A stretch of DNA of 64,000 nt from Candidatus Undinarchaeota archaeon (GTDB lineage Archaea; SpSt-1190; JASMDC01). Of this stretch, positions 9,686 to 54,524 are shown piece after piece. The notes under the pieces are model-generated. The model searched no databases. It was not told the origin of the DNA and worked only from the letters and a program-made list of their open reading frames with translations. Both the position numbers and the translations under genes were made by a program. The first letter of the stretch is position 1, and each line of letters begins with the position of its first letter. Location of the stretch: assembly GCA_964519305.1 (NCBI GenBank), contig CAZFHY010000004.1, forward strand, positions 122,774 to 186,773, read 5' to 3'.

Positions 9686-9748
9686 GAAGGCCCCTGAACA
9701 AGGATGGGCTCGACCCATTTTTAAATCTTCGCGCACCTCTCCCGGTCC

Positions 9749-11419: not shown

Positions 11420-11420
11420 G

Positions 11421-12353: not shown

Positions 12354-12442
12354 GAACGGCTATCCCGCTACCCTCTTTTTAAATCTTCACGGCCCATCCG
12401 CACCCATGCAAGCCTCGGGACCTGGCCCCGGGAGGGCGTGAG

Positions 12443-14187: not shown

Positions 14188-14292
14188 AAGTCAAGGTGAA
14201 TATACGCATCACACCTGCGGAAACCCTCCCTTGCAGGAACCGGAACGGTCCCGCGGGAAGGTTTATAAGGCGGACACGGTGCCTGTCTGTTC

Positions 14293-15072: not shown

Positions 15073-15079
15073 GCTCGCC

Positions 15080-16243: not shown

Positions 16244-16251
16244 CTCCGCGT

Positions 16252-17337: not shown

Positions 17338-17358
17338 GTCTGGAAGGGCGACGCCAAC

Positions 17359-17368
17359 CTTGATAAAG
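17359..17368. promoter_or_regulatory. Bidirectional TATA-like element between U32 and queD
   Basis: CTTGATAAAG (reverse complement of CTTTATCAAG) lies exactly 21 nt from both divergent starts (17337 and 17390). Confidence 0.75.
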
Positions 17369-17389
17369 GTACGCGGGGAGAACGGGAGC

Positions 17390-17824
17390 ATGCTGATCAC
17401 CGTCTCCGGCCTCGGGTTCGCGGCCTCCCACTTCCTGGCAGGCCATCCCACGTGCGGGCGCCTCCACGGCCATAACTACCGCGTCGAGATCGTGTGCGAG
17501 GGCGAACCTGACGACAGGGGCATGGTGGCCGACTTCCACGTGATCAAAGCGGCCGCTGCTACCGTGCTCGATGAGGTGGACCACCGGACCCTTCTTCCCG
17601 GGGAGAACGACGAGATCAAGATATCGGTCGAGGGTGACGAGGTCAGGGTCACGGGCTGCAAGACACTAGTGCTCCCACGCGAGGACGTAGTGGTGCTGCC
17701 TGTGAGGAACACGACCTGCGAGGAGCTGGTTAAATGGCTCCACGGCAGAATGGCAGAACACATCCCCTCCCTTGTGAACGTCAGGCTGTGGGAGAACGAG
17801 CGCTCGTCAGCGGCATATCCCTAG
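17390..17824 (+). CDS. queD: 6-carboxy-5,6,7,8-tetrahydropterin synthase / 6-pyruvoyl-H4-pterin synthase
   Basis: FAASH, CGRLHGHNY, GMVADF, DH, TTCE and WE motifs. Confidence 0.88.
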   Translation: MLITVSGLGFAASHFLAGHPTCGRLHGHNYRVEIVCEGEPDDRGMVADFHVIKAAAATVLDEVDHRTLLPGENDEIKISVEGDEVRVTGCKTLVLPREDVVVLPVRNTTCEELVKWLHGRMAEHIPSLVNVRLWENERSSAAYP

Positions 17825-40090: not shown

Positions 40091-41145
40091 GACGCATCGG
40101 CGTGGGTGTTCTCGGTGCTACCGGGATGGTAGGCCAGCGTTTCCTCTCGCTGCTGGACGGCCACCCCTGGTTCGATGTTAAGTTCCTGGGCGCTTCGGAG
40201 CGGTCAGCCGGGAAGCAATACATCGATGCTGCCCACTGGGTGCTCGATGCTCCTATGCCCGAGTGGGCGGGCGATATAACTGTCGGAGCGTGCAATCCCG
40301 CGGCCTCTGGTGCGGACGAATGCGATGTACTGTTCTCCGCGCTCCCTTCGTCGGTCGCTGGACCGGTGGAAGAGGCATTCGCGCGCGCGGGTCGCGTCGT
40401 TGCCACGAACGCCGCCAGTCACCGCATGGACCCCTATGTCCCAATCCTCATCCCTGAGGTAAACGCTGATCATCTGGACGTCGTGGACGTCCAGCGCGAA
40501 CGCCGTGGATGGGAGGGCGCTATCGTCACCAATGCGAACTGCACCACCACGGGTCTTGCCCTGGGTCTGTGCCCATTGATGGACCTCGGCCTCTCACGCG
40601 TGGCCGTGACCACCCTCCAGGCGCTCTCCGGTGCGGGGTATCCCGGGGTCCCCTCCATGGCGATCATCGACAACGTCATCCCGTTCATCGGTGGTGAGGA
40701 GGAGAAGGTGGCCGCCGAGGTCAGGAAGATCCTAGGAAAATGGTCGGCCGAGGATGGGTTCACGGACGCTCCTGTGGACGTGAGCGCCACGTGTACAAGG
40801 GTGAACGTCTCCGATGGCCACCTCGAGTCGGTCTTCGCTTCCCTTGATGGTGGACCCGAGGATGTGAAGAACGCCGTCCGCGACTTCAAGGACCCCATGA
40901 CCGACCTCGATCTCCCCACATCACCTCCGCAAGCACTGATGCTCCTGGAAGAGGATGACCGGCCACAACCACGCAGGGACCGTAATCGAGGGAAAGGTAT
41001 GACCGTCAGCATCGGTCGCGTACGCCCCGACGTCGTGCTGGGTGTGCGGTTCATGCTCCTTGTCCACAACACTATCAGGGGCGCTGCCGGCGCGTCCATC
41101 ATAAATGCCGAGCTCATGGTGCGCAGGGGCATCGTGCCTGGTTGA
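40087..41145 (+). CDS. asd: Aspartate-semialdehyde dehydrogenase (archaeal type)
   Basis: GATGMVGQRF, NANCTT, QALSGAGYPG, DNVIPFI.GEEEK and HNTIRGAAG. Confidence 0.95.
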   Translation: MRRIGVGVLGATGMVGQRFLSLLDGHPWFDVKFLGASERSAGKQYIDAAHWVLDAPMPEWAGDITVGACNPAASGADECDVLFSALPSSVAGPVEEAFARAGRVVATNAASHRMDPYVPILIPEVNADHLDVVDVQRERRGWEGAIVTNANCTTTGLALGLCPLMDLGLSRVAVTTLQALSGAGYPGVPSMAIIDNVIPFIGGEEEKVAAEVRKILGKWSAEDGFTDAPVDVSATCTRVNVSDGHLESVFASLDGGPEDVKNAVRDFKDPMTDLDLPTSPPQALMLLEEDDRPQPRRDRNRGKGMTVSIGRVRPDVVLGVRFMLLVHNTIRGAAGASIINAELMVRRGIVPG

Positions 41146-41152
41146 GGGAGCC

Positions 41153-42016
41153 GTGGTGACGCGGTACTCTCTGGGTCTCGGGTGGCGCTGCAACAACCAA
41201 TGCACGTTCTGCTGCGCCGGTACGAACGTGTACGATGAGCTCCCCCCTGATCAGGTCCGCTGCCTGCTCAAGATAGCGGCAGACGATGGAGCGGACGAGC
41301 TCGTGCTGACCGGGGGAGAGCCCACCTGTCGCGACGACCTCTTCGATATAGTGCGCGAGGCACGAAAGCTCGGGTATACGACCGTGCAGCTCCAGACCAA
41401 CGGTCGCATGCTCTATTACCCCGACTATACAGCCCAGCTCATAGACGCTGGCATCACCGAGTTCATCGTCACCGTTTCTGGCCACACGGCACAGCTCCAT
41501 GAGGGACAGACGAAGGTCCGCGGCTCACATCACCAGACCATGGCCGCGATCCGGAACATCAGACGGTTGGGTGGGTTCGTCGCTGCCAATGTCGTCGCTA
41601 CGAAGGCAGTGGCCCCCCATCTCCCTGCTATCGCCCGGGATCTGGTGAAGCGGGACGTTTCGCAAGTGCAAGTGGCATTCCCGGAACCGGCGGGCAGGGC
41701 GTACCTCGCCATGGACGAGGTCGTGCCCCGGCTCCGCGATATCCGGGCCCCACTTCGCGAGGCCCTGGCCGTGGTGCTGGAGGCGGAGCGGTTCGCCACG
41801 ATCGAGGGTTTCCCCCTCTGTACATCGCCTATCCACCTCCGCAATACCGTTGAGTGGATGGAGGGTGAGGGCGGTGCGGTCCCTGTCTGGGAACGTCGGG
41901 TCCACGGCGCGGCCTGTGATCAGTGCACTATTGCAGAGCGCTGCCCCGGCATGTGGTCTACGTACATGGACCGCTGGGGCGATGATGAGCTCGAACCGGT
42001 GACCTCTGTCATTTGA
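41153..42016 (+). CDS. Radical SAM protein (CNNxCxFC type, C-terminal CxxCx5C)
   Basis: CNNQCTFC, GGEPT, QLQTNGRM, FPLC and CDQCTIAERCPG. Confidence 0.9.
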   Translation: MVTRYSLGLGWRCNNQCTFCCAGTNVYDELPPDQVRCLLKIAADDGADELVLTGGEPTCRDDLFDIVREARKLGYTTVQLQTNGRMLYYPDYTAQLIDAGITEFIVTVSGHTAQLHEGQTKVRGSHHQTMAAIRNIRRLGGFVAANVVATKAVAPHLPAIARDLVKRDVSQVQVAFPEPAGRAYLAMDEVVPRLRDIRAPLREALAVVLEAERFATIEGFPLCTSPIHLRNTVEWMEGEGGAVPVWERRVHGAACDQCTIAERCPGMWSTYMDRWGDDELEPVTSVI

Positions 42017-42947
42017 GGTGGGCCTGAGCGAGGTCGGCCGTCGAATCCACAGGGCTCCCGGGGACAGGTACGAACTCGTCCCATCCGAACCGATCAGGAT
42101 ACTCGCGCCACACACCCTCACAGACACTTACGAACCGGCACTGTGAGCACCGAGGTCCCTTGGCCTTTCCCTCTGCAACGCGGGTCGTGTCGAAATCCGT
42201 GTCGAGCCCCTCAGGGCTGTCAACCTCAGTGGGGGGCAGGTAGAGCTCCGAGGCCAGGGATTCCCTTCCATGCAAGAGACATAGGGGCACGGCCTCCACA
42301 TGCGCGTCCAGCCCACGGGACCCGGCGAGGTCCAGGGCGGCGGTGATAGGTGGTACTGCGTCCTTCATCCGGGGGACCACCTGATCGAACTCATCCCGGG
42401 CGTTGCCCTCGGCATGTACGAAAGCGGCCTGGTAGCCACGCGCGCCACTGTCAGCGGCGATCCGTGCGATGTCCACGAGCTCCCCGAGATTGGACCGTAC
42501 GACCACGGTCTTGATGACAACCTGCACCCCTGCTGCGACGAGGTTGTCAATGCCTCCCCGGGTCTGGTCGAAGGCACCCGGTGCTCGCACCAGCCCATCG
42601 TGCGTGGACGGCGTTGCGCCATGAAGCGCGACCACCGCTTCAGTGAGCCCGGCCTGGGCCAGGTCGACCGCCAGACCCCGATAGCTCGCCATCCGCCCGT
42701 TGGTCTGGAGCTGGATACGACCGTAACCAAGTCTGTGGGCTGCTGACACCAGCTCCACGAGGTCCGATCGTACCGACGGTTCCCCGCCCGTGATGACAAC
42801 CTCGGTGGCCTCGGGTCGTGCGCGCTCCAGCGCAGCGACTAGCATATCGGTACCCCGGTCGGGATTGGCGCGCCGGCGGGCAACGACACAGAAGCGGCAG
42901 TTATTATTGCAGGAATAGCCCACCTTGAGGTCCAGGCGTCGGACCAT
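42009..42947 (-). CDS. Radical SAM protein, paralog of 41153..42016
   Basis: CNNNCRFC, GGEPS, QLQTNGRM, VPLC and CSQCRFVSVCEG. Confidence 0.9.
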   Translation of the reverse strand: MVRRLDLKVGYSCNNNCRFCVVARRRANPDRGTDMLVAALERARPEATEVVITGGEPSVRSDLVELVSAAHRLGYGRIQLQTNGRMASYRGLAVDLAQAGLTEAVVALHGATPSTHDGLVRAPGAFDQTRGGIDNLVAAGVQVVIKTVVVRSNLGELVDIARIAADSGARGYQAAFVHAEGNARDEFDQVVPRMKDAVPPITAALDLAGSRGLDAHVEAVPLCLLHGRESLASELYLPPTEVDSPEGLDTDFDTTRVAEGKAKGPRCSQCRFVSVCEGVWREYPDRFGWDEFVPVPGSPVDSTADLAQAHLK

Positions 42948-42998
42948 GATGGCGTTGTGAGGCGCAAAGGATTTATCTTCTCCCACGGAAGGGTCGGT

Positions 42999-43979
42999 GT
43001 GAGGCTCTGGAACAAGCTCGCGGCCGCCCGGGCGGTAGCGCTTGCGCACCTGACAGGGCGACGTACACCGCTGTCCGTGTCCTTCCACGTTACGAACAGG
43101 TGTAATTACGCCTGCTCCTACTGCGACGTTCCGGGAACACCGACCGACGAGATGACCCTCGATGAGGTGTACGACATCATCGACGGGCTCGCCAGGCTGG
43201 GATGTCAGCGCATCGGCCTCACAGGCGGCGAGCCACTGGTCCGCGACGATATCGGGGACATCGTCAGACGATGCCAGGACAACGGTATATTCACGGGACT
43301 TGTGTCCAACGGCGCGCTGGTGACACGCAGGCTCAAGGACATCACCTCGCTCGACCTGCTCCAGCTCTCACTCGACGGACCTGCGAAAGTGCACGACGCC
43401 GTCAGGGAGCCTGGAGCACACGACAGGGCTGTAGAGGCCATCGCCGCAGCAAGAGCCGAGGACATGACCGTCTGGCTCACCACCGTGCTCACAAACGATA
43501 GTGTCGAGCACGTTGACCATGTGCTCGACATCGCTCGTCACTACGACCTTCAGGTGTACTTCCAGCCTGTCGTGGACTATGATATTTGCGGACCGGGTGC
43601 GAAGAAGCTCCTACCCGACGCAGAGCGCTTGCGCGAGGTCCTAACATACCTCATGATGGTAAAGCGCTCAGAGGGGCTGATCGGTAACTCGATCGAGGGT
43701 CTTGAGCACCTTATGCACTGGCCCGAGCACCCCCGGGACGTGCATTGCTGGGCAGGGTCCCTCTACGCACATATCTACACCGACGGTCGGTTGTACCCCT
43801 GCTTCAACATGGTCGGAGGCCCTGCACCCGACGCTCGGGCAGCAGGTATCGAGAGAGCGTTCTCTGAGCTTGAACCGCCATCGTGCGCGGGGTGCTGGAC
43901 CTACGCCAATCTAGAGCTCAACCTTCTATTCTCGCTGGACCCGGGCGTGGTGATGAACACACTCAGGCTCCTTAGATGA
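42999..43979 (+). CDS. Radical SAM protein with twitch/SPASM-like domain
   Basis: CNYACSYC, GGEPL, LSLDG, CWAG...DGRLYPC and CAGC. Confidence 0.9.
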   Translation: MRLWNKLAAARAVALAHLTGRRTPLSVSFHVTNRCNYACSYCDVPGTPTDEMTLDEVYDIIDGLARLGCQRIGLTGGEPLVRDDIGDIVRRCQDNGIFTGLVSNGALVTRRLKDITSLDLLQLSLDGPAKVHDAVREPGAHDRAVEAIAAARAEDMTVWLTTVLTNDSVEHVDHVLDIARHYDLQVYFQPVVDYDICGPGAKKLLPDAERLREVLTYLMMVKRSEGLIGNSIEGLEHLMHWPEHPRDVHCWAGSLYAHIYTDGRLYPCFNMVGGPAPDARAAGIERAFSELEPPSCAGCWTYANLELNLLFSLDPGVVMNTLRLLR

Positions 43980-44649
43980 CGGATTCCACGTGAGCACAGA
44001 GGTCCGCCAATGGACACTCGCTGCACCGTGGTGACCGGGGCCGGCACACGTCCTTACCAAGGGCCACGAAGAGGGCGTGGTACTCGTTGTAGAGGTGGAC
44101 GTCCTCGGGCATATGGGTGATGAACAAGTATTGGAGCTCATCATACTTCACATCCGCCGTGCAGAGACCCAACCGCGAGCAGATCCGGCGTGTGTAGGCA
44201 TCGATGACGAACGACGGCATCCCTGCTGCGTACAAGAGGATGGAATCGGCTGTCTCGGGGCCCACACCCGTGACGTCGAGCAGGTCCTCACGCAGTCGGG
44301 AGAGAGGGCGGGAGAAGAGGATGTCCAGCCCACCTGCATTATCGATGAACGCCACCAGACCTTTGAGGCGCCGGGCCTTCTGGTTGAAGTATCCGGCAGG
44401 CCGTATCAGGGCCGCCAGCTTGGTCTCGGGAAGCTCGCGAATACCATCGGGGGAGAGAGCACCGGCCTGCGACAAGGCAGCGATGGCCCGTTCCACGTTC
44501 GTCCAGGCGGTATTCTGTGTGAGCAGCGCTCCGACGACTATCTCGAAGGGTGTGTCCCCCGGCCACCAGTGCTGAGGGCCGAACCGCGCGAACAGTCGCT
44601 CGTAGACCTCTGACACCAGGTGCGTTGGGTCCGTGTCGGGTCCCGTCAC
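43972..44649 (-). CDS. Endonuclease III-related HhH-GPD glycosylase
   Basis: WWP..TPFE, LTQNT.W, GVGPETAD and C-terminal Cx6CxxCx5C. Confidence 0.9.
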   Translation of the reverse strand: MTGPDTDPTHLVSEVYERLFARFGPQHWWPGDTPFEIVVGALLTQNTAWTNVERAIAALSQAGALSPDGIRELPETKLAALIRPAGYFNQKARRLKGLVAFIDNAGGLDILFSRPLSRLREDLLDVTGVGPETADSILLYAAGMPSFVIDAYTRRICSRLGLCTADVKYDELQYLFITHMPEDVHLYNEYHALFVALGKDVCRPRSPRCSECPLADLCAHVESVI

Positions 44650-44670
44650 GGCCCCCGCGGCACCGAGAAA

Positions 44671-44680
44671 CTTTATCAAG
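44671..44680. promoter_or_regulatory. Bidirectional TATA-like element between the endonuclease III gene and U32
   Basis: CTTTATCAAG lies exactly 21 nt from both divergent GTG starts (44649 and 44702). Confidence 0.75.
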
Positions 44681-44701
44681 GTTGGTGTCACCCTTCCCGG
44701 C

Positions 44702-45784
44702 GTGGAGCTGCTCTCCCCGCTAACTCGCGTCCACGAGGTTGATCCGCTCATCGACGCCGGAGCAACCGAGCTCTTCGCCGGTGTGCTCACGCCTGAGTGG
44801 AAAGAGGCGTTCTCCACCCTGGTCGCCAGTAACCGTCGTGACACTTCAGTGGGCAACTTCCCCTCGCTCGAGGAACTCGAGGAGGCCGTGGGCCGGGCCC
44901 ACGAACGGAACGTGCCCGTCAACCTTACTCTTAACCTCTCCTTCTACACAGCGCGCCAGCACGAGCGTGTCGGCAGGCTCATGGACGCCGCTGCAGGACT
45001 GGGTATCGATGGATTCCTCATAGCCGATCTCCCAACCATGCTCCGGGCCCGCGATGAGTACCCGGATATCGCCCTGCACATAAGCACCATCGCTCCCAGC
45101 TTCAACCGCTCGACCCTGCAGTTCTATGCCGAGCTCGGGGCCGAGCGAGCAGTGCTCCCCCGTCACGTTAGTCTTGACGAGGTGACCGGTCTCGTAAAAG
45201 ATACCCCACTCGATCTCGAGGTGTTCGTGCTCAACAATCCATGCCTGAACGTCGATGGGTTCTGCACATTCACTCATGGTGTCCATGAGGCCACAGTATC
45301 CCTTGTGGGCAGTCTTGGGCGCGCTCTTCGTCACAGCCACTGGGCCATAGCCCTGGCACGGCATGCGCCCACCGATCTGCTCAGGCTGGCCCGCAAGCTG
45401 CCTGGCCTCACACCACCACCATGCATGCTTCCCTACGATATCGACGTAGTGGCCGTTGGGGGATTGGCTTTGGACGGGGTGGCCGCGTCCCGGGCACGCG
45501 TCTCGGCCAACCTCAGACCGAAGACCGGTGTCGACTGCGGTGCCTGCTCACTGCGCACCCTTCTGAACGCTGGTGTGAAGGCGATCAAGATCGACGGAAG
45601 GACCAACGACACGCCGCGTAAGATAAAGGACGTGCGCTACCTTGCGGCACTGCTCGAGCTCGCGGGCGACAACAGCATCACCGATACCGAGCTCTACCAG
45701 CGCACTCGTGAGAGGTTCCAGGAGGAGTACAGCGGAGTATGCGCGGACCGCTCCTGCTACTACCGGGAGTTCGTTCCCAGATAA
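44702..45784 (+). CDS. U32 family Fe-S protein (paralog 2)
   Basis: LSPL, GATELFAG, DGFLIAD, HIST, CLNVDGFC, CGAC, KIDGR and CADRSCYY. Confidence 0.9.
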   Translation: MELLSPLTRVHEVDPLIDAGATELFAGVLTPEWKEAFSTLVASNRRDTSVGNFPSLEELEEAVGRAHERNVPVNLTLNLSFYTARQHERVGRLMDAAAGLGIDGFLIADLPTMLRARDEYPDIALHISTIAPSFNRSTLQFYAELGAERAVLPRHVSLDEVTGLVKDTPLDLEVFVLNNPCLNVDGFCTFTHGVHEATVSLVGSLGRALRHSHWAIALARHAPTDLLRLARKLPGLTPPPCMLPYDIDVVAVGGLALDGVAASRARVSANLRPKTGVDCGACSLRTLLNAGVKAIKIDGRTNDTPRKIKDVRYLAALLELAGDNSITDTELYQRTRERFQEEYSGVCADRSCYYREFVPR

Positions 45785-45787
45785 GGG

Positions 45788-46888
45788 ATGGTCATCATGG
45801 ATATCCTCTCGCCCCTCACACGCGCCGAAGAAGTGAACCCGCTGGTGGACGCTGGCGCCACCGAGTTCTATGCAGGCGTGCTAACCCCCGAATGGAGACG
45901 TGCGTACACGACCCTCGTATCAGGCAACCAGCAGCATACCACTTGGGGCAACTTTCTATCTCTGGAGGACCTATCCGACGCTGTCGAGAGGGCCCATGAA
46001 CGAAAGACGACCGTCAACCTTACCGTCAACACCGCCTACTACACGACAGCCCAGCACGAGCTGGTAGGTAAGGTCCTGGACGCCGGTGCCGACATGGGCG
46101 TCGACGGGTTCATCATCGCCGATGTACCCACAATGCTACGCGCCCGCCAGGAACATCCGGACGTCACCGTCCACGTGAGCACCCTCGCCCCCTGTTTCAA
46201 CCGCTCGACGCTTGCGTTCTTCGCGGACCTGGGCGCCTCCCGCATAGTGCTCCCCCAACAACTCACTCCTGACGAGATCGCGACACTAGCCCAAGATGCT
46301 CCACTTGACATCGAGGTATTCGTGCTCAACAACCGATGCCTGAACGTTGACGGATTCTGCACCTTTACCCATGGCGTAGAGGAGGCCACCCGTGCCCATG
46401 ACACAGGTCTCGGCCACGCCCTCCTACACAGCAGGTGGGCGATGACGGCCGCCCGGACCCTCCCAAGAGCCGTGCTCCAGCGAATACGGCGGTTCTCCAT
46501 GTTCCGTCCCCCTCCATGCATGATCGAATATACCACCGAACCGCTCTCCGTGAGAGGGGCGCCGCTCGAGGGACTGGCCGCTGCCCGAGAGCGGATGTCA
46601 TCCCATTTCAAAGGGAAGACTGGGATTGACTGCGGCGCCTGTGTCCTCCGCACACTTATGCGTGCTGGTGTGAGAGCGGTGAAGATCGACGGTAGGACCA
46701 ACGACCTGACGCGCAAGCTCATGGACGTCCGGTTCCTTGCGAACCTGCTAGAGGCAGCCAAAGACGACACTATCACGGACGAGGTACTGTACGCGCGTAC
46801 ACGTAGCGCCTTCCGCGAGCAGTACGCAGGATCCTGCACGGACATATCATGCTACTACCGGGAATTCCTGCCAAAGTCATCCCGATGA
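45788..46888 (+). CDS. U32 family Fe-S protein (paralog 3)
   Basis: Same motif set: CLNVDGFC, CGAC, KIDGR and CTDISCYY. Confidence 0.9.
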   Translation: MVIMDILSPLTRAEEVNPLVDAGATEFYAGVLTPEWRRAYTTLVSGNQQHTTWGNFLSLEDLSDAVERAHERKTTVNLTVNTAYYTTAQHELVGKVLDAGADMGVDGFIIADVPTMLRARQEHPDVTVHVSTLAPCFNRSTLAFFADLGASRIVLPQQLTPDEIATLAQDAPLDIEVFVLNNRCLNVDGFCTFTHGVEEATRAHDTGLGHALLHSRWAMTAARTLPRAVLQRIRRFSMFRPPPCMIEYTTEPLSVRGAPLEGLAAARERMSSHFKGKTGIDCGACVLRTLMRAGVRAVKIDGRTNDLTRKLMDVRFLANLLEAAKDDTITDEVLYARTRSAFREQYAGSCTDISCYYREFLPKSSR

Positions 46889-46967
46889 CGTCCGGCGCGC
46901 GTGCAAGACCACCCGTCATAGGACATATCATCCCGAGTGGATATCCCCAGTAGGGGAGGACTACATC

Positions 46968-48710
46968 CTAATCGGCCTTACCGACAAGCTCGATCCTGGA
47001 TAGCTGGAGGTCGGTGAACAGGGCCGACATCTCCCCCCCGGGCGCGGTAACACGCTGAATCGGGACGATCTTGAAAGAACTGTCCAGTGCGGGTGTGAGA
47101 ATGTTCCTGTCCCTGTCCGATCCGTATAGGTACACGCATGAACCCTTATCGAGCAGTGCTCTCACGTCCTTGCGAATCGTGGCCGCCATCAGTTCACGTG
47201 GGAATCGCTTCGGCTCGGTATCGACGACGATGACACGCCGACGCCACATGTGTTGGGGACGTATGGATTCTACGGCCAATATATAGCATTCAGGACCAAC
47301 GAGAGTTCGCCAGCCGTCGATGATACGCGCCTCCCATGCGAGTGTCTCACGTATAGGACGGTGCACACCATCGTTGGTCGTGATGGTCTTATAGAGGCAG
47401 GGAACGAGCACTATACATGATATGGTTACGACGACAAGGAGTCGTCGTCCCCCTTCTCCCACCCGCCACAAGGCCCAGAGCAGGACCGTTAGGGGAAGAA
47501 CGAGGTGGAGGACGCCGAGCGACCGGCCCATCGCTTCCGGGAGCTCGAATCCGTACCATGTGTCATAGGCGAACGGTAGGTGAAAAGCGCCGGACAGGAT
47601 GATAGCACCGATGAGGACATGGCTCCTAGGGGCCAGCGCTCTCGCACCTGCACCACAGGCCATGGCGAACGGGGCAGAGAGAAGGAGCATGTAGCGGGGG
47701 ATAAAGGTCTCGGACGTCTGGAGAAGGTACACGAAGAGTCGCACCACCCACCAAGAGGCCGCGAGCGTCCCGTACGGCGAGGGGAGACGCCACATGACCA
47801 CACACCCCATCATGGCGAGTGCGGTGAACAGGAACGGTTGGTGGAACCCGTCGAACCAGTAGAACACGTAGGAGACGTTACCTACCACCTGGCTAAGGTC
47901 CAAACGCTGTGAGATGCCCTGGTATCCGAAGTGGAGCTCGCTCCACGACATATAGGTGGGCGCGATCAGTACGAGTGCCACGATCCAGGGGGTTAGCGAT
48001 GGGCGTGGGTAGTCGGACCACCGTCGGTATACGACAATGAGAGGGACAATGATCAGTACGCTCTCTACTCTCATCGTCAAGAGGAATGCGGTGCAGGCAG
48101 CGGAGAGCCACCCAAGCGCTGCCCTGCGTGTTCTCACATGGACAATGGCCGCGAGCACGGCAAGGGTCTCAAGGAGAATGGAAGACACTTCGGAGCGGGT
48201 GGTGACCGCGTATCTCACGTGCATTGGGAGAAGGGCAATGACCAGAGCGGCCACGAGAGCTACACGACGGTCCCGGCCGACCAGCGTCACAAGAAGGTAG
48301 ACGCATCCCACGGTGAGCACTCCTCCGACCACACCCACCACTCGTGCCGCCAAGTCGGAGAAGCCGAACAGGGTGGATGTCAGGGAAAGGATGAGGGGGT
48401 AGCCGATTGGAAAGAACGTATCGAACCTCTGACAGTCGCCACTCATGCCCAATGTACAGAACGCGTTGATGTGATGTTGGGCGAGGACCGTGGATTGTTC
48501 GTGGTAGAACAACTCATCGTCGATGAGGATAGGACGATAGGGATTGAGAACGCGCACGCTGAAAGCGATGAGTAGGACGAGGAACAGTGCGCTTCGCCCA
48601 TTTCGGGAACGCGGGACGAACGCCCACAGCTCCCTACGCGAGGCCACGAGCGCCCCGGTGATGAGCAGGAGGTTCGCGATCCCCACGGGCAGTGCCAGGG
48701 ACACCGGCAT
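46968..48710 (-). CDS. GT-C fold glycosyltransferase (ArnT/PMT_2, family 39/83-like)
   Basis: Acidic DDE motif in the first loop, PIGYP, AAR, PMHVRYA..SE, R.E and PRY motifs; many TM helices. Confidence 0.85.
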   Translation of the reverse strand: MPVSLALPVGIANLLLITGALVASRRELWAFVPRSRNGRSALFLVLLIAFSVRVLNPYRPILIDDELFYHEQSTVLAQHHINAFCTLGMSGDCQRFDTFFPIGYPLILSLTSTLFGFSDLAARVVGVVGGVLTVGCVYLLVTLVGRDRRVALVAALVIALLPMHVRYAVTTRSEVSSILLETLAVLAAIVHVRTRRAALGWLSAACTAFLLTMRVESVLIIVPLIVVYRRWSDYPRPSLTPWIVALVLIAPTYMSWSELHFGYQGISQRLDLSQVVGNVSYVFYWFDGFHQPFLFTALAMMGCVVMWRLPSPYGTLAASWWVVRLFVYLLQTSETFIPRYMLLLSAPFAMACGAGARALAPRSHVLIGAIILSGAFHLPFAYDTWYGFELPEAMGRSLGVLHLVLPLTVLLWALWRVGEGGRRLLVVVTISCIVLVPCLYKTITTNDGVHRPIRETLAWEARIIDGWRTLVGPECYILAVESIRPQHMWRRRVIVVDTEPKRFPRELMAATIRKDVRALLDKGSCVYLYGSDRDRNILTPALDSSFKIVPIQRVTAPGGEMSALFTDLQLSRIELVGKAD

Positions 48711-48777
48711 GGGATGACGAGGTACTCGATCCTTTATAAATAGAGGCAGGTCCGCGTCAGTGTATCCTGCCTACTCC

Positions 48778-50535
48778 CTACTGGGACTGGCGCCTACCCC
48801 TCACACGGTAGAAGGCGATCTCCTCGAGGAGCTGTATTGCATCAGGGGACTCATTATTTACATCGATCAGGTCCAACAGTTCTAGCACATAGTTCTCGTG
48901 AAGGACGGACGCGGTCCACCCGCGTGGCCTCGGTTCGTAGAAGAATACACATTCTCCATCACGTAGTAACGGATCCAGTTCCACCGCCAACATCTCACTT
49001 ACCGTCTCCGTGGAGAAGAAGTTGAAGTTGGCAACGACCGTAGGCCGCTGCCACAAGTATCGCGGACGCACGGGCTCTACGACGACGACGTGACAGTCTT
49101 GGCCGACCAGATAGCGCCATCCATCGATCGTGCGCTCCTCCAGTGCGAACGCCTCACGATGGGCATGATGCACGCCATCAGTTGTCTCTATCAGGGTGTA
49201 TAGGAGCGGGACAAGGAACAGACAGGCTACCGCTATTACTACATGGGGTCGCGGCTCCCGCGACCGCCACGCCGCCCAGAGCAGCAGTGCAAGTGGGAGG
49301 AATAAGTGGACAGCTGCCATCGTCGAACTGATGCCCTCGGCTAGTTCGATCCCATATCGAACACTGTAGGCAAAGGGCAGGTGCGCTATACCGGACAGCA
49401 CTACGGCAATAACTATGAAAGAGACTACGGGCGAGAATATGTTTGCACCGGCGCCGGCGAGCAGTGCGAACGGAACGGAGAGGCTGAGCATGAAACGAGG
49501 ATTGAACTCCCGGAAGTGGTTGAGGAGGTACACGCCCATCCGGACCAGCAACCAGGAGGCAGCGAGTCGAGCGTACGGTACGGGAAGCCCTCGAACGGCC
49601 ACGGCACCCATAAGGGCGAGGCCTGTGAAGAGGAACGGGACGAAGTACCCATCCAGCCAGTACCTGACGTACCATAGATTGCGTGGTATGTGCTTGGGAT
49701 GAAGGGGGACCTCCCGGTCCTCGGCCTGCGTGGAGCTCAGATGGAAGGTAGAGCCCATGTTGAGTTCGTTGAACCCGCTCATGTGAGGTGTGAGCAGTAC
49801 GAAGGCCACTATCCAGGGGAGGGCGGACCTTCGTGCTCTTCCCCCGCTACTATAGACGGCCAGGACCGGGACAATCGCCAGCGGGTTCTCCCGTCGCACG
49901 GTCACATGGAACGCGAGGGAGGCGGCTGCGAGCCAGGCATTAGCCGGGCGCCCCGTCCTTACATGGAGGAGCGCTCCTAGGACCGCCAAGGCCTCTGTCA
50001 GCAAGGAGACCATCTCGGAGGACGTCGCCATGGCGTACCTCACATGCATGGGAAGGAGGGCAATTACGAGCGATGCCACGAGCGCGGTCCGCTCGTTCCG
50101 GACGAGGAGACGTGCCAGCAAGTATGTGACCAGCACGGTCGCGATACCGCACATGATCCCCACTGCACGTGCTGCGACATCGGTGAACCCGAAGATCGAG
50201 GACGCTAGCGAGAGGACCACAGGATAACCGATCGGATAGAACACGCCGAACCGTCCGCAGTCGTCCATGTCACCGTATGTGCAGAACACGTTGAGACGAT
50301 GATGGACAAGCGCATGGGACTGGTCGATGTAGAGCCACTCGTCCTCGAATGGCATCGGACGGTAGGGATTGAGAACTCGTACGCTGAACGCGATGAGGAG
50401 CACGAGCAACAGCGCTCTGCGCTCACGAGGGGCCCGCGGGATTAGCTTCCAGAACTCCCGACGCGATGCCACCAGCGCCCCGGCGATGAGCAGGAGGTTC
50501 GCCAGCGCCATGGGGAGCGCCAGGGGCGACGGCAT
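48778..50535 (-). CDS. GT-C fold glycosyltransferase (tandem paralog)
   Basis: EDE, YPIGYP, PMHVRYA..SE, RRE and PRF motifs; colinear with the neighbour. Confidence 0.85.
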   Translation of the reverse strand: MPSPLALPMALANLLLIAGALVASRREFWKLIPRAPRERRALLLVLLIAFSVRVLNPYRPMPFEDEWLYIDQSHALVHHRLNVFCTYGDMDDCGRFGVFYPIGYPVVLSLASSIFGFTDVAARAVGIMCGIATVLVTYLLARLLVRNERTALVASLVIALLPMHVRYAMATSSEMVSLLTEALAVLGALLHVRTGRPANAWLAAASLAFHVTVRRENPLAIVPVLAVYSSGGRARRSALPWIVAFVLLTPHMSGFNELNMGSTFHLSSTQAEDREVPLHPKHIPRNLWYVRYWLDGYFVPFLFTGLALMGAVAVRGLPVPYARLAASWLLVRMGVYLLNHFREFNPRFMLSLSVPFALLAGAGANIFSPVVSFIVIAVVLSGIAHLPFAYSVRYGIELAEGISSTMAAVHLFLPLALLLWAAWRSREPRPHVVIAVACLFLVPLLYTLIETTDGVHHAHREAFALEERTIDGWRYLVGQDCHVVVVEPVRPRYLWQRPTVVANFNFFSTETVSEMLAVELDPLLRDGECVFFYEPRPRGWTASVLHENYVLELLDLIDVNNESPDAIQLLEEIAFYRVRGRRQSQ

Positions 50536-50585
50536 AGGACGAGATGGGGTGCTGAAGCTTCAAAAAGTTACCCCGTACAACAGCG

Positions 50586-51380
50586 TCATACAGGCAGGCC
50601 CGGCGCATGGACCACACGGTCGATGCCTCGCGCTTCCAGGTCGTCGGGGAGATGGTCGTTGCGGTAGAACTGGGTATTCCCCGCGAGCACAAGCGGTACG
50701 GGCATGTGTCTCGTGATGAGGCGGAAGGGGCCGTAACGCAGGCACTCCTTCCCGCATGGGGTAAGGCTCGGCCGCGCACCGCTATTACCACATAAGGCGA
50801 CAGGACAGCATCGGCTCGTAGTGACGTATGCATAAGGGTAGTGCAGAGAGCCTTTCAGACCTGATCCCGTCAGGTCGTCATCGATGCCCTGGAGGAGGTT
50901 ATCCAGTTCCACACGAAGCACACCTTGCTCGCGCAGGAACGCCTGGAAAGCGGGCGCACTGACATTGGAACGACGGTAATGATGAAAGGCTGCCGGTGGG
51001 ATACGTTCCTCAAGAAGGGTGACCCGGGGGCCGCGTTTCTGCTTAGTAAGCAGACGTCCGAGCACGGGTCGCAGGTCCCATCCATTCTCTCGAATGAGCG
51101 TTAGGATACCAAGATCGTTCACGACTACCTCGGACCCGGGCGCCCTGTCGTGCAGTCGCCCAATCAGTTCTGTCGTCCGCTCGAGCGCCGTGTCGGTAAC
51201 AAACGGAGTGACAAGTGTAAGGTCCGCGTCCCGGTCCCGGGCGAATCCTATCGCGGTATCTAGCCCGGCAATGTCAGGGAGGATACGCTGGCAGAACTCC
51301 TGTCCGAAATGGAGCCTAGTGTACCGGTCCTCCCACCGGTCCAAGTCACTTACCTTTGTCACGTAGAGGGCGTTCTCCAT
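50586..51380 (-). CDS. Divergent short U32-like protein
   Basis: RLHFGQEFC, LVTP, EVVVNDLG, LGRLL, RVELDN and TTSRCC..C..PCGKEC; starts 1 nt after the stop of a U32 gene. Confidence 0.6.
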   Translation of the reverse strand: MENALYVTKVSDLDRWEDRYTRLHFGQEFCQRILPDIAGLDTAIGFARDRDADLTLVTPFVTDTALERTTELIGRLHDRAPGSEVVVNDLGILTLIRENGWDLRPVLGRLLTKQKRGPRVTLLEERIPPAAFHHYRRSNVSAPAFQAFLREQGVLRVELDNLLQGIDDDLTGSGLKGSLHYPYAYVTTSRCCPVALCGNSGARPSLTPCGKECLRYGPFRLITRHMPVPLVLAGNTQFYRNDHLPDDLEARGIDRVVHAPGLPV

Positions 51381-51381
51381 G

Positions 51382-52467
51382 TCAGCCCACCAGATTGTTG
51401 CAGTAGTCGTCGTCACAGGCGAAGCCTCGGAGGGCACCGAACCTCTCCCGGGCACGGTCGCAGAACGCGTTGTCGTCGGTCGTGCGTTCCATCTCTTTCA
51501 GCATCGTCTTGATGAAGGTTATGTTGTTGAGCCGGTCGCCGAGCGGGGCTGCCCGGTCCTCGGTCTTGACCACTGAAATGCCCATACGGGCAAGTTGCGG
51601 GAGCGCGCATGCGCCACACCCGTACATCCGCTCGTGCTCATATGCGTTCGATAGCATAGGTGACAGGCAGGACCTGACGCGAGCGAGTTCGCCCTCCTCC
51701 ATCGCCTCCATCGGCTCGATGTCGTACCTCAGACAGCAAGCAGCGCGGTCCGCAAGGAACGTGTGCTCCTGGAGGAAACGCCGAAGCCGCCCTGCGCCCT
51801 TGCGCTGGTACGTCCTTATGATACCGCTCTGGAGCGGGTTGTTGAGGACGAACCTAGAGAGCTGCGGGTGCCGTGCCTCGATGACGCCATGTTGGAACCG
51901 ACAGAGTGCTTCCACGTTGTTGCAGCCCACTGTGAGGATGAAACTCTCCAGTACCATGTCACCGCGGTCTGCGGCGATGGAGTCGATCTCCTCCAGCGTG
52001 AGCTGCTTGGGCAGAACCACCCGCGAAGCACCGAGCTCCCGATAGAAGGCCACGGTACGTGAGTTGAACGCGCCACCGACAACGCTGACGTGGAGCTCCA
52101 CGCCCGTGTCCATGGCGACAAGTGTGCGCATGAGCCCGATGTCAGCGGCTATTATCCCGTCCACACCGGCGGACACCGCGCGCTCCACCTCCTTCTCTAG
52201 GAGATTGTATTGGTCGCGGCTGTAGTAGTACGAGTTGTAGGTAGCAAAGACCTTGGCGTCGTGTGAGTGGGCCACTTCCACCACATGTCGCAGCTCGTCG
52301 AAGTCGGTCAGATTGTGGAAGCGCGAGGGACTGCCGTTGATGGTCCCAGTATGAGCGAAGCTCCTCTGCCATGCAGGAGTGAGCACACCGCAGTACACCT
52401 CGTCCGCGCCAGCAGAGACAACCTTCTCGATCTCGCTGACGTTGTTGACCGGAGAGAGGACCTTCAT
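51382..52467 (-). CDS. U32 family Fe-S protein (paralog 4, more divergent)
   Basis: MKVLSP, GADEVYCG, DGIIAAD, HVS, FNS, GASRVVLP, CNNVEALC and CGAC. An alternative GTG start lies at 52476. Confidence 0.9.
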   Translation of the reverse strand: MKVLSPVNNVSEIEKVVSAGADEVYCGVLTPAWQRSFAHTGTINGSPSRFHNLTDFDELRHVVEVAHSHDAKVFATYNSYYYSRDQYNLLEKEVERAVSAGVDGIIAADIGLMRTLVAMDTGVELHVSVVGGAFNSRTVAFYRELGASRVVLPKQLTLEEIDSIAADRGDMVLESFILTVGCNNVEALCRFQHGVIEARHPQLSRFVLNNPLQSGIIRTYQRKGAGRLRRFLQEHTFLADRAACCLRYDIEPMEAMEEGELARVRSCLSPMLSNAYEHERMYGCGACALPQLARMGISVVKTEDRAAPLGDRLNNITFIKTMLKEMERTTDDNAFCDRARERFGALRGFACDDDYCNNLVG

Positions 52468-52531
52468 CCCGTCCACTCATGAGTGGGTGAGCTTTTTAAC
52501 GTTGTCCGCGAGGGCGTGGCCACTGCGACAC

Positions 52532-52541
52532 CTTTATCAAG
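52532..52541 (+). promoter_or_regulatory. TATA-like element upstream of U32 paralog 5
   Basis: CTTTATCAAG exactly 21 nt before GTG 52563. Confidence 0.7.
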
Positions 52542-52562
52542 CTTGGGCGACCCCCCTGCCCC

Positions 52563-53648
52563 GTGGAGCTCATCTCGCCCCTTACTGCGGTCCGGGAGGT
52601 TGCGCCTCTAGTCGAAGCTGGTGCCACTGAGCTCTACGCGGGTGTTCTGACACGAGGGTGGAAGGACTCCTTTTCGACGTTCGTGTCGAACAACGACCGT
52701 GACAGCGTCGTCGGTAACTTCTCGGACATTGAAGAGCTGCGCGAGGCGGTCGACATGGCCCATGAGCTGAAGGTACCCGTCCACCTCACACTCAATCCCG
52801 CCTACTACACGGCAGCACAGGCCGACCAACTGGCACGGCTCATGGACGATGCGGTCGATGCCGGAATCGACGGTTTCCTCATCTCGGACCTCCCGACCAT
52901 GCTCCGTGCTCGTCGCGAACATCCTGACCTATCGGTCCACGTAAGCACTATCTCCCCTGCGTTCAACAGCGCAGCGCTCGCGTTCTACGCGGGCCTGGGC
53001 GCCGAACGAGCGATCCTCCCCCAGCACCTCACTCCTGACGAGATCGCCGACCTTGCCCGTGATCCGCCACTGGACCTGGAGGTGTTCGTGCTCAACGACC
53101 GCTGCATGAACGTGGATGGTTTCTGCACCTTCATGGACGGACTCCAGGAGGCAGAGGATCCACGCAGCGGAGGCCTGGGACGCTCCGTCCTCCACAGTCG
53201 TGCGGCACTGATGGCCGCCCGTCACGTGCCCCGTCGCTTGCTCCGCATGGCCCGGCGACTTCCCGGGCTCAGGCCCGAACCCTGTCTGCTCGATTACGGG
53301 ACCGAGCCGGTGACCATCGGCCCCGTTCCGCTGGAGGGGATCGCAGCCGCCCGGTCACGGATGGAGCGGCATTTCCATGCCAAGACGGGTATCGACTGCG
53401 GTGCCTGCGTACTTCGCACGCTCATGAACGCTGGTGTGAAGGCCGTCAAGATCGCGGGACGCTCGAACGACACCCGTCGCAAGCTCCAAGACGTGCGTTT
53501 CATAGCTGCTCTGCTACGTCTTGCTGAGGATAACAATGTCAGTGATGAAGAGCTCTATGTGCAGACGCGAAAGGCGTTCCGTGACGACTACAGCGGCTCG
53601 TGTCGCGACGAGGTCTGCTACTACCGCACCTTCCTGCCTCGTGCGTGA
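52563..53648 (+). CDS. U32 family Fe-S protein (paralog 5)
   Basis: ISPL, GATELYAG, CMNVDGFC, CGAC, KIAGR and CRDEVCYY. Confidence 0.9.
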   Translation: MELISPLTAVREVAPLVEAGATELYAGVLTRGWKDSFSTFVSNNDRDSVVGNFSDIEELREAVDMAHELKVPVHLTLNPAYYTAAQADQLARLMDDAVDAGIDGFLISDLPTMLRARREHPDLSVHVSTISPAFNSAALAFYAGLGAERAILPQHLTPDEIADLARDPPLDLEVFVLNDRCMNVDGFCTFMDGLQEAEDPRSGGLGRSVLHSRAALMAARHVPRRLLRMARRLPGLRPEPCLLDYGTEPVTIGPVPLEGIAAARSRMERHFHAKTGIDCGACVLRTLMNAGVKAVKIAGRSNDTRRKLQDVRFIAALLRLAEDNNVSDEELYVQTRKAFRDDYSGSCRDEVCYYRTFLPRA

Positions 53649-53657
53649 ACTGGCACC

Positions 53658-54524
53658 TCAGCCCGCTACGGGCGTCCGTGAGACAGGCCCGTGCGCTGCC
53701 AGACGTGCTCCTGCAGGCGTGAGGCACATGAACCTCCGATTAGGACTGAGTCTCACCAATCCTTCCCGTTCCAGGGCGGTCACGAGTCGGGAGAACGCTG
53801 CCTTTGACATCTTGAGCGACCGTCGCAGAGTGGAGCACTCCCGCTCCCCGCGTCGAACAGCCCGCACCACGGTCAAGGCGGCCTTTCGTCGCGCGGACCG
53901 GGAGGATACGGAACGGAGGTCGTTCGCTGCGATATCCCCGAGAGTGCGTCCCGCACGGCCTTCCCAAGTGACGGCGGGCGGCCCGCCAGCGAGCTCGTGC
54001 AGCTTAGGGAAGCAGCGTCCGAAATGGGCTGTCGCATAGCCAAGTAGCACGGGCTCCACTCCCAGAGCATCACGGTACGCTGCACTGTCACCAGCGACCC
54101 GGAAGTCCATCCCGGACGAGGCCAGCACGTCCCGCAGCACACGCGGATCGTGACATGGTGCGGTGAACACCGCTGCCTCGGCCCCACCACGGTTCACGAC
54201 CGGCGCCATGACCTGAGTGGAGACGCGGTCGAGAGTGAGGTTCGCTAAGCTCTCCCGGGCCGGGTACCGTGTATGGATGTGCATTAATCGCCCTCCGGTC
54301 CGCTCGGGACCGAGGAGGACGCGATGGAGGTTGTGCCGTCGACGCACATCATCCAGCATACCGGGGAGCGCACGTCCATCAGGATCATGAACTACACAGT
54401 CGTAGTACGCGTACCCTTCCCAGACGTGACTGAGGGCGCTGAGCGATGCCGTACCATGACGTTCTGCAGCATCTATCCCACGACATTCGTGCCAGCCGTG
54501 CACGTAGAATACGTTTTCCCCCAT
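53658..54524 (-). CDS. Hypothetical protein with C-terminal winged HTH (putative regulator)
   Basis: LRRSLKMSKAAFSRLVTALEREGLV is a MarR-like wHTH. Confidence 0.6.
   Translation of the reverse strand: MGENVFYVHGWHECRGIDAAERHGTASLSALSHVWEGYAYYDCVVHDPDGRALPGMLDDVRRRHNLHRVLLGPERTGGRLMHIHTRYPARESLANLTLDRVSTQVMAPVVNRGGAEAAVFTAPCHDPRVLRDVLASSGMDFRVAGDSAAYRDALGVEPVLLGYATAHFGRCFPKLHELAGGPPAVTWEGRAGRTLGDIAANDLRSVSSRSARRKAALTVVRAVRRGERECSTLRRSLKMSKAAFSRLVTALEREGLVRLSPNRRFMCLTPAGARLAAHGPVSRTPVAG

Follow-up and report, generated by a model that had tools for sequence, protein, structure and literature searches.

The DNA considered here is a window of 64,000 nucleotides (C4:122774-186773) from the genome of an uncultured marine archaeon, Candidatus Undinarchaeota. 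Between 41 and 54 kb of this window lies a 13-kb island with genes for four U32 proteins (U32a to U32d), a divergent U32-like protein (X289), three radical S-adenosylmethionine (SAM) enzymes (rSAM1 to rSAM3) and two GT-C glycosyltransferases (GTC1 and GTC2), accompanied by an HhH-GPD DNA glycosylase gene and a possible winged helix-turn-helix (wHTH) regulator. A sequence-only reading had taken the island for one anaerobic pathway that modifies a membrane-linked substrate before glycosyl transfer. The U32, U32-like, radical SAM and GT-C genes that it listed are all present and intact as judged by Pfam, motifs and structure. The HhH-GPD gene was absent from its list, and its wHTH gene is a genuine open reading frame (ORF) whose identity as a regulator has sub-threshold matches only (HVO_A0261_N, 22.5 bits against a cut-off of 35; MarR_2, 21.5 against 27). 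U32c and X289 are predicted to form a heterodimer resembling UbiU-UbiV. The island as a whole may, tentatively and at somewhat less than an even chance, be taken to encode part of an O2-independent route to a tailored cell-surface glycoconjugate that is passed across the membrane.

U32c and X289 as a predicted heterodimer

The genes of the U32c-X289-GTC2-GTC1 string share one strand, with U32c first. Alignment places the start of X289 at Met26 (51380), so that a single base separates the TGA stop of U32c from the ATG of X289, and translational coupling of the two is strongly indicated. Three runs of complex prediction gave an interaction prediction score from aligned errors (ipSAE) of 0.92, while none of three controls exceeded 0.00; in a benchmark, 116 of 157 solved complexes and 2 of 215 mismatched pairs attained the mark for this score. 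Contacts were at least 93% concordant between runs and the predicted local distance difference test (pLDDT) score of X289 was at least 90. The predicted interface takes in residues 186-195 of U32c and 185-204 of X289, adjoining the cysteine motifs; the stretches concerned bear Cys185 and Cys192 on the U32c side and Cys192 and Cys209 on that of X289. The pair is thus predicted, from models, to be a UbiU/UbiV-like heterodimer with conserved cysteines at the interface.

The pairing recurs well beyond the island. The genome has seven X289 paralogs, every one beside a U32 gene. A scan of one genome per species yielded 136 relatives of X289, here called the partner family, and the best 80 loci were retained; these carry about 20 phylum labels and are numbered below where they must be told apart, L007 being the locus from the same genus and L008, L078 and others the related loci. 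A U32 gene lies directly beside the partner on the same strand for 58 of 79 partner genes (43 upstream and 15 downstream, again under about 20 phylum labels); for the remaining 21 no adjacent U32 was called.

The closest characterized precedent is UbiU-UbiV, the O2-independent, prephenate-dependent ubiquinone hydroxylase of Escherichia coli (PMC6747719, PMC10990095), in which the CXnCX12CX3C residues of UbiV hold a [4Fe-4S] cluster (PMC6747719). In both cases a large subunit with PF01136 and a smaller partner with a TIM barrel are the products of neighboring genes, the first cysteine of the partner lies far upstream of its C..C-X3-C, and each subunit has a conserved set of cysteines suited to a [4Fe-4S] cluster. 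The present host, moreover, is anaerobic and can make prephenate. The motif of X289, CXnCX16CX3C, is similar in spacing to the CXnCX12CX3C of UbiV. There are differences as well. The heterodimer is demonstrated for UbiU-UbiV and predicted for U32c-X289; and of the CX6CX16CX38C pattern of UbiU the U32 family described here keeps CX6C, with its other cysteines placed differently and a distinct C-terminal half, the alignment with the E. coli proteins covering only some 190 residues at the N terminus. UbiT and other ubi genes are absent from the annotated loci, although no genome-wide search for UbiT was made, and the neighbors here are radical SAM, sugar and GT-C genes. To our knowledge, no UbiU-UbiV complex has been solved.

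X289 itself has escaped annotation. It matches no Pfam or NCBIfam model, the UbiV model (NF047965) giving nothing even at an E-value of 10, and neither single-sequence nor profile searches against NCBIfam and PDB sequences returned anything useful. Its named relatives are all 'hypothetical' (533 proteins match it at E <= 1e-10 in total), and a protein atlas likewise returned 'hypothetical' clusters only, with PF01136 as the nearest named family at a score of 0.81, which serves as a lead only. The family is large: a profile search of 1.84 billion representatives found 2179 members at E <= 0.001, 1637 at 1e-10 and 721 at 1e-30. Each of the cysteines C30, C192, C209 and C213 is retained by 83-84 of 84 sequences. 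The model of X289 (pLDDT 94.9) best matches 5d88, the only solved U32 domain (E 1.4e-5, TM scores 0.50/0.53), the remaining matches being for the most part unspecific TIM barrels, GH18 chitinases among them. A comparison of the X289 profile with that of the U32 paralogs gave a probability of 72.6% (E 3.2e-5); hhalign with E. coli UbiV, taken as a single sequence, returned 0.6%. Fold and profile-profile comparison, and not a sequence match, are what join X289 to the PF01136 superfamily, and its role as the UbiV-like partner subunit of U32c is a model-based prediction.

Some partner proteins are fused to other domains. Four of the 150 best representatives of the family are far longer than the rest; three long representatives are fusions of the partner with a class I SAM methyltransferase, and P0221 (1220 aa) is a candidate fusion of a B12-binding/radical SAM region, a GT1 glycosyltransferase, the partner and a SAM methyltransferase. 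No U32-partner fusion was found among the sampled loci. A 590-aa 'partner' in L079, with an Arg/Pro-rich extension, looks like an artefact of ORF calling and was set aside.

Table 1. Island genes, flanking genes and a related cluster, in window coordinates. Pfam cut-offs: PF04055, 29.5 bits; PF01136, 22.4 bits (met by U32a, U32b, U32c and U32d); PMT_2, 26.1 bits
Feature	Position	Strand	Evidence and remarks
X289, predicted UbiV-like partner, 264 aa	50586-51380 (ORF to 51455)	-	Fold, Cys motif, complex prediction
U32c, predicted UbiU-like large subunit	51382-52476	-	PF01136 84.4 bits
U32a	44699-45784 (alternative start 44633)	+	PF01136 98.9 bits
U32b	45788-46888	+	PF01136 101.9 bits
U32d	52563-53648	+	PF01136 93.1 bits; transcribed divergently from U32c
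rSAM1, HxsC/HxsC4-like radical SAM	41105-42016	+	PF04055 68.4 bits, CX3CX2C; true start probably near 41153, downstream of the asd stop
rSAM2, rSAM1 paralog, HxsC/HxsC4-like	42009-43088	-	PF04055 68.8 bits, CX3CX2C
rSAM3, PTO1314-like radical SAM	42957-43979	+	PF04055 86.3 bits, CX3CX2C
GTC1, ArnT/PMT_2-like GT-C transferase	46968-48710	-	PMT_2 36.9 bits
GTC2, ArnT/PMT_2-like GT-C transferase	48778-50535	-	PMT_2 37.0 bits
EndoIII-like HhH-GPD DNA glycosylase	43972-44922	-	HhH-GPD 57.9 bits, EndIII_4Fe-2S 26.7 bits; true start probably near 44600
Possible wHTH regulator	53658-54524	-	Sub-threshold wHTH matches only, residues 213-276
Left flank: aspartate-semialdehyde dehydrogenase (asd)	stop at 41145		
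Right flank: GCS2-type ligase and a 920-aa protein outside known families			
Related cluster	8351-17451		Mixed content: HMPTM/Tes-like radical SAM, carbamoyltransferase, two LPG_synthase_TM, PP-loop/DUF7411, MFS, fifth U32
Fifth U32 copy of the window	16252-17451	-	

The U32 family of the island

Eleven of the 12 U32 genes in the genome align with each other over their full length at 29-64% identity. Against UbiU, TrhP and RlhA of E. coli the same 11 align, in most pairs, over only about the first 140-220 residues, at 22-33% identity. The four U32 genes of the island score 92.6-97.6 bits on the NCBIfam UbiU model (NF047963), where the cut-off is 440, and 58.1-62.9 bits on TrhP, where it is 534. 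A tree of 77 rows was built from 62 U32 proteins of the sampled loci, the genome's own 11, the three E. coli proteins and a separate RlhA-like protein of the same genome (707 aa, 37% identical to RlhA over 366 aa). It is the product of a quick search, its related rows having been gathered through the partner gene and thus sampled with bias, and it holds neither UbiV nor Bacillus subtilis sequences. Within that scope the 73 family members split from UbiU, TrhP, RlhA and the RlhA-like protein on a branch with 100% support in the SH-like approximate likelihood ratio test (SH-aLRT). With scores so far under the cut-offs, this bears out the expectation of the sequence-only reading that the U32 paralogs would fall outside the TrhP and RlhA clades.

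Seven cysteines, in the pattern CX6C...C...CX2C...CX4C, are invariant in all 73 family members and suffice for one cluster and a second metal site. U32a, U32b, U32d and the fifth U32 copy of the window form a clade confined to the genus (7 rows, 99% SH-aLRT), and none of them is adjoined by a partner gene. Four of the 12 U32 genes lie inside 9 kb, a clustering that exceeds chance and that is accounted for in part by local duplication, to judge from the 59-60% pairwise identity of U32a, U32b and U32d.

The start of U32b lies 3 nt beyond the stop of U32a, and this tandem recalls TrhP1 and TrhP2 of B. subtilis (yrrO and yrrN), two tandem U32 genes that are both required to hydroxylate U34 of tRNA, after which TrmR (yrrM), a methyltransferase from the same operon, O-methylates the new hydroxyl (PMC6599085). 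Partner-methyltransferase fusions and methyltransferase genes beside U32 pairs offer a parallel to TrmR. The U32 proteins here, by contrast, lie outside the branch of E. coli TrhP in a tree that did not include B. subtilis, and no RNA-related genes are nearby.

Elsewhere in the genome, the gene for the RlhA-like protein stands two genes downstream of that for a 2196-aa protein with LamG, FG-GAP, pentaxin and FGE-sulfatase domains (L001:766-7356, contig C1), with a GNAT acetyltransferase gene between them.

The radical SAM genes

In Pfam, rSAM1, rSAM2 and rSAM3 match Radical_SAM and Fer4_12 only, with neither a PqqD/RRE nor an HxsD-like domain. The best NCBIfam matches of rSAM1 are HxsC4 (142.7 bits against a cut-off of 500) and HxsC (91.5 against 267.9), and those of rSAM2 are the same (167.7 and 109.1 bits), so both are below cut-off. 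rSAM3 scores 110 bits on the PTO1314 model (TIGR03961), whose cut-off of 306.05 it does not reach. Among solved chains, the nearest to rSAM2 (7vob, E 2.6e-14) and to rSAM3 (E 6e-13) is the sugar-acting radical SAM enzyme BlsE, a cytosylglucuronate decarboxylase. The alignment is limited to the radical SAM core, however; rSAM2 reaches 66.9 bits on the NCBIfam BlsE model, where the cut-off is 400, and the peptide maturases PqqE and SkfB, as well as MoaA and viperin, score within a few orders of magnitude of BlsE.

The three genes differ in the company that their relatives keep. A pair like rSAM1/rSAM2 adjoins a partner gene in L011 only (33-36% identity). Homologs of rSAM3 (about 345 aa, 33-42% identity over 89-98% of the length) are found in clusters with U32 or partner genes at ten loci (L008, L078, L025, L023, L036, L038, L039, L040, L043 and L058), which span DPANN archaea, Omnitrophota and Planctomycetota. 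In seven of these ten the order is rSAM345-HMPTM rSAM-U32-partner, where rSAM345 denotes the 345-aa group. It is strongly indicated that rSAM3 is one of a group of radical SAM enzymes found alongside U32-partner pairs in distant phyla. Within the present genome, rSAM1/2-like and rSAM3-like genes occur together at three places.

Outside the window, the same genome has an HXS-type locus (G000:C1:105873-112258, equivalent to L104:12874-19259), HXS being a bacterial antiphage system (PMC13128918). It encodes HxsB (424.7 bits, cut-off 370), an HxsD-like protein (43.2 bits, cut-off 41), a second HxsD that falls just under its cut-off (48.5 against 50), four HxsC-like radical SAM proteins and an ORF of about 112 aa with an N-terminal hydrophobic stretch and His-Xaa-Ser repeats. 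A search for defense systems with PADLOC gave only weak viperin-type matches to radical SAM genes, and no system was called.

These resemblances bear on an alternative in which the U32 pair and the HxsC-like enzymes modify a ribosomal peptide or an exported protein, for instance by hydroxylating or cross-linking His, Tyr or Trp, after which it would be O-glycosylated extracellularly by the PMT-like GT-C enzymes. Not only are HxsC4 and HxsC the best families of rSAM1 and rSAM2, but the HXS-type locus, with its HxsB and His-Xaa-Ser ORF, is built from their paralogs, and in HXS systems a protein is matured by HxsB and HxsC (PMC13128918). The family of protein O-mannosyltransferases is PMT_2, and aromatic side chains suit the known chemistry of U32 enzymes. 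The alternative nevertheless seems to us unlikely. Both proteins score far under the HxsC cut-offs; the island has no HxsA repeat protein, HxsB-type maturase, HxsD-like or PqqD/RRE domain, and its gene gaps are at most 100 nt. No small His-rich or Cys-rich ORF is found in the window, where the matches look like off-frame reads of GC-rich coding DNA. Furthermore, it is sugar enzymes that recur around U32-partner pairs: DegT, hexapeptide acyltransferase, GT2, carbamoyltransferase and GFO/IDH/MocA.

The GT-C genes

The model of GTC2 (pLDDT 69.7) has ArnT (5ezm, E 2.3e-7) as its top match, followed by STT3, AglB, PglB, AftD, Emb, ALG and Pmt4, and all its PDB matches at E <= 0.001 are GT-C enzymes. 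The motifs D-D-E and E-D-E follow the first helices of the GT-C pair, the D-D-E of GTC1 being in its first outer loop. In glycosylation of the Arn/Gtr kind, a GT2 enzyme makes a polyprenyl-phosphate sugar, a flippase moves it across the membrane and a GT-C enzyme transfers the sugar. Apart from the ArnT match, the second island of this genome (described below) puts a GT2 gene beside GT-C genes, LPG_synthase_TM occurs in related clusters, and DegT together with an acyltransferase recalls sugar amination of the ArnB type. The match to ArnT is, however, at the level of the fold (TM 0.45-0.48, 14% identity) in a genome with 15 GT-C paralogs, and we know of no Arn/Gtr system with U32 or radical SAM partners.

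The GT-C genes are the variable element of their surroundings. GTC1 lacks a counterpart in L007, where the equivalent of window 46873-48764 is missing, and GTC2 is the least conserved gene there, at 79% identity to its ortholog against 87-92% for its neighbors. In metagenome copies of the second island, on contig C1, the GT-C copies are 52-75% identical and their neighbors 87-97%. Variable GT-C copies beside conserved neighbors fit the diversification of surface glycans. A metagenome scan started from the GT-C alignment found three loci, all of them same-genus copies of the C1 island and hence no independent support.

ArnT acts on lipid A, and this, as the top structural match of GTC2, lends itself to a further alternative, in which an isoprenoid lipid or quinone is altered by the U32 pair together with the radical SAM enzymes, for example through hydroxylation or methylation, and then glycosylated by the GT-C enzymes. 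UbiU and UbiV, the closest characterized pair, act on a polyprenyl phenol. HMPTM-type radical SAM proteins beside U32 pairs match Tes and TrsS best (111-162 bits), and PEMT/ICMT-type methyltransferases, phytoene-desaturase-like AmOx proteins and LPG_synthase_TM recur nearby. Pairs of radical SAM and B12 radical SAM enzymes modify the tails of glycerol dialkyl glycerol tetraether (GDGT) lipids, and the GDGT hydroxylase goes unnamed in the same preprint (bioRxiv 10.1101/2023.10.20.563219). We regard this as the least probable of the alternatives, and quite improbable in itself: both UbiA-family genes lie far from the islands, no prenyltransferase, SCP2/UbiT-like or quinone gene was seen in the annotated loci, and a sugar substrate better suits the presence of DegT, hexapeptide acyltransferase, GT2 and NDP-sugar enzymes. 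No protein of the genome reaches the Tes cut-off (best 132 bits against 450), and the GDGT version of the idea was rejected on that count.

Linkage in this genome and across phyla

The genome that holds the island comprises 3.63 Mb in 42 contigs, with about 60% G+C and 99.8% completeness. Fifteen sampled members of the class have genomes of 0.6-1.2 Mb, while that of the sole genus mate is 3.8 Mb. The nearest public relative is labelled Undinarchaeales, and on that basis 3.63 Mb is unusually large for a class of the DPANN type. BLAST counts of the families concerned are high: 26 B12 radical SAM, 15 GT-C, 12 U32, 10 carbamoyltransferase, 9 rSAM1/2-like, 8 rSAM3-like, 7 partner and 7 HMPTM-type genes.

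Several other clusters in this genome combine the same families. The second island (C1:269759-307174) has eight close GT-C paralogs and one distant one, two U32-partner pairs, two rSAM3-like genes, B12 radical SAM, GT2, methyltransferase, AsnB and PP-loop genes. On contig C13 (L003) an overlapping operon, DegT-U32-partner-hexapeptide acyltransferase-B12 rSAM, lies beside an NDP-sugar epimerase/dehydratase gene; the same locus carries RuvB and RuvA genes of bacterial type (L003:1439-3083), an observation of separate interest in an archaeal genome. At L005:6930-10708 (G000:C2:184429-188207) a partner gene precedes its U32 gene, and genes for an FMN reductase and chorismate synthase come next, which fits a link of the U32 enzyme to the shikimate/prephenate branch. 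Chorismate synthase, two chorismate mutase domains and prephenate dehydratase are encoded in the genome. The related cluster of the window (Table 1), whose HMPTM/Tes-like gene overlaps the next gene and probably starts near 9700, also holds a 259-aa protein without an assigned family.

Across phyla the linkage holds for a subset. Neighbors were counted within six genes of the partner, radical SAM genes including the B12, HMPTM/Tes-like, 345-aa and 466-aa groups, and glycan-type genes being DegT, hexapeptide acyltransferase, carbamoyltransferase and GT-C. Outside the genus, 20 of 73 loci have a radical SAM neighbor, 14 a glycan-type neighbor, 12 both and 5 a GT-C gene; a GT-C gene occurs anywhere in the locus in 7 of 76, and carbamoyltransferase in 3 loci. 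The sequence-only reading had made its pathway depend on recurring linkage of U32 homologs to radical SAM, GT-C or carbamoyltransferase genes, and this proved true of that minority, the other 53 of 73 loci having no radical SAM neighbor. The radical SAM link is found in 7 of 10 Omnitrophota loci, in 3 of 4 from Planctomycetota and also in DPANN-type archaea. None of 14 Thermodesulfobacteriota partner loci shows the radical SAM/glycan link, their pairs standing beside lipoate, chaperone or redox genes.

The arrangement seen in Omnitrophota and Planctomycetota is AmOx-DegT-rSAM345-HMPTM rSAM-U32-partner-B12 rSAM, with PEMT and PMT_2 genes further out. L008 and L078 (labelled Nanoarchaeota and Woesearchaeota) each have rSAM3-like, partner, PP-loop, hexapeptide acyltransferase, carbamoyltransferase, B12 and HMPTM radical SAM genes. 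To these L078 adds LPG_synthase_TM, GFO/IDH/MocA and a U32 gene, the only U32 called in the two loci, and L008 a methyltransferase and GT2. These are the families that the window divides between 8351-17451 and 41-54 kb.

Bacterial loci L018, L019 and L020 present another setting. Here U32-partner genes are part of co-directional strings with methylmalonyl-CoA-mutase-like, MeaB, FAD_binding_3, BcrAD and 2-hydroxyacyl-CoA dehydratase genes. The strings look like an anaerobic degradation pathway, and the U32-partner pair therefore seems to be a reusable module.

As a block the island is far less widespread. L007 is syntenic with it at 86.5% nucleotide identity, including the wHTH gene (92% identical), and synteny of the whole 13 kb is confined to the genus. 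HhH-GPD, wHTH and GCS2 genes occur in none of the other 76 loci, and asd shows no linkage either. We take HhH-GPD, asd and GCS2 to be bystanders, the HhH-GPD gene being probably a passenger. An Rfam scan of the window gave no matches, and a sigma-70 promoter and terminator scan, a method unsuited to archaea, returned counts equal to those of shuffled sequence. Outside the island, an ORF of 1117 aa (21838-25191, + strand) lies in the stretch of strongest negative skew of the window (GC -0.205 and AT -0.243 at 22001-24000).

The earlier idea that the whole 13-kb block is a single pathway unit finds no support in these comparisons: synteny is confined to the genus, the genes are divided between the two strands, U32a, U32b and U32d belong to a clade of this genus and lack an adjacent partner, and the HhH-GPD, wHTH and GCS2 genes are unlinked. 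A more sceptical view goes further and sees no single pathway at all, only expanded paralog families in juxtaposition. The radical SAM trio, the U32a/U32b tandem, the U32c-X289-GTC2-GTC1 string (the sole functional unit) and U32d would then serve separate processes, some perhaps in RNA hydroxylation. The convergent and divergent junctions and the HhH-GPD gene in mid-block agree with this, and the large families (26 B12 radical SAM, 15 GT-C and 12 U32 genes) make chance neighbors likelier. We nevertheless think it improbable, as the mix of families is repeated in the second island and in unrelated phyla, rSAM3-like and partner genes share one cluster in L008 and L078, and rSAM1/2-like genes accompany rSAM3-like genes at three sites in the genome.

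A possible function for the island

Tailoring of a cell-surface glycoconjugate is the explanation that we tentatively prefer. In its favor stand the sugar-type neighbors of U32-partner pairs (in the L003 operon, the second island, L008 and L078, and the Omnitrophota and Planctomycetota loci), the fusions, BlsE as the nearest solved chain to rSAM2 and rSAM3, and the variability of the GT-C copies. The U32c-X289 heterodimer would carry out a two-electron oxidation or a hydroxylation, the latter being favored, of a cytoplasmic precursor, most likely a nucleotide-linked or polyprenyl-phosphate-linked sugar. The oxygen could come from prephenate, as it does when ubiquinone is made, given that genes for chorismate synthase, chorismate mutase and prephenate dehydratase are present. 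Further radical steps may fall to rSAM3, and perhaps to rSAM1 and rSAM2; the newly made group would then be methylated, carbamoylated, aminated or glycosylated, and the GT-C enzymes would attach the product at the outer face of the membrane. U32a, U32b and U32d would be genus-specific extra large subunits, and the U32a-U32b tandem may act like TrhP1/TrhP2 of B. subtilis. The heterodimer and the linkages rest on computed results; the chemistry, the substrate and the order of the steps we infer.

A number of observations weigh against this explanation. Neither a nucleotide-sugar gene nor a GT2 or flippase gene is present within 41-54 kb, and the sugar context is drawn from paralogous and homologous clusters rather than from the island's own operon. 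Known substrates of U32 enzymes are aromatic or pyrimidine sp2 carbons, not sugars (PMC10990095). GT-C genes of the island type were found in 3 of 41 genomes searched, namely the genome itself, its genus mate and one distant genome (E 7.9e-23). The lack of a radical SAM neighbor at most partner loci outside the genus counts here too, as do the many loci in unrelated contexts (FAD_binding_4/CCG/ETF, lipoate, acyl-CoA mutase/dehydratase); this makes the U32-partner pair a general module, and conclusions from context do not transfer freely from one locus to another. The partner-side search was biased by its mode of collection. Lastly, the island genes are on both strands and rSAM1 and rSAM2 resemble peptide maturases.

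Significance for the U32 family and its anaerobic hosts

A 2024 paper and a 2024 review give established Fe-S roles for U32 proteins only in the hydroxylation of ubiquinone and RNA, and leave most of the twelve U32 subfamilies uncharacterized (PMC10990095, PMC11574389). Searches of the literature turned up no account of U32 pairs in the company of radical SAM and GT-C genes. The present case contributes the archaeal occurrence, the definition and size of the partner family, the predicted heterodimer, the fusions and the second island. The UbiV-like partner family is absent from model libraries, and the confidently predicted heterodimer can be expressed, so both offer handles on the system. The recurring neighbors (radical SAM, DegT, acyltransferase, carbamoyltransferase, methyltransferase and GT-C) point to a new class of substrate. 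Should this hold, it would reveal how oxygen functions are introduced into the surface glycans of anaerobes and may, with the massive expansion of these families, help to explain the large genome of this lineage.

A broader proposition, which we hold to be doubtful at present, is that heterodimers of the U32c-X289 type are a widespread second class of two-subunit O2-independent hydroxylases or oxidases acting on sugars and glycoconjugates rather than on quinones or RNA bases. If true, the hydroxyl or keto groups that they make would then be methylated, carbamoylated, aminated or glycosylated, oxygen-donor chemistry of the prephenate type would extend to the building of carbohydrates in strict anaerobes, and an unannotated family with over 2000 sequence clusters would gain a function.

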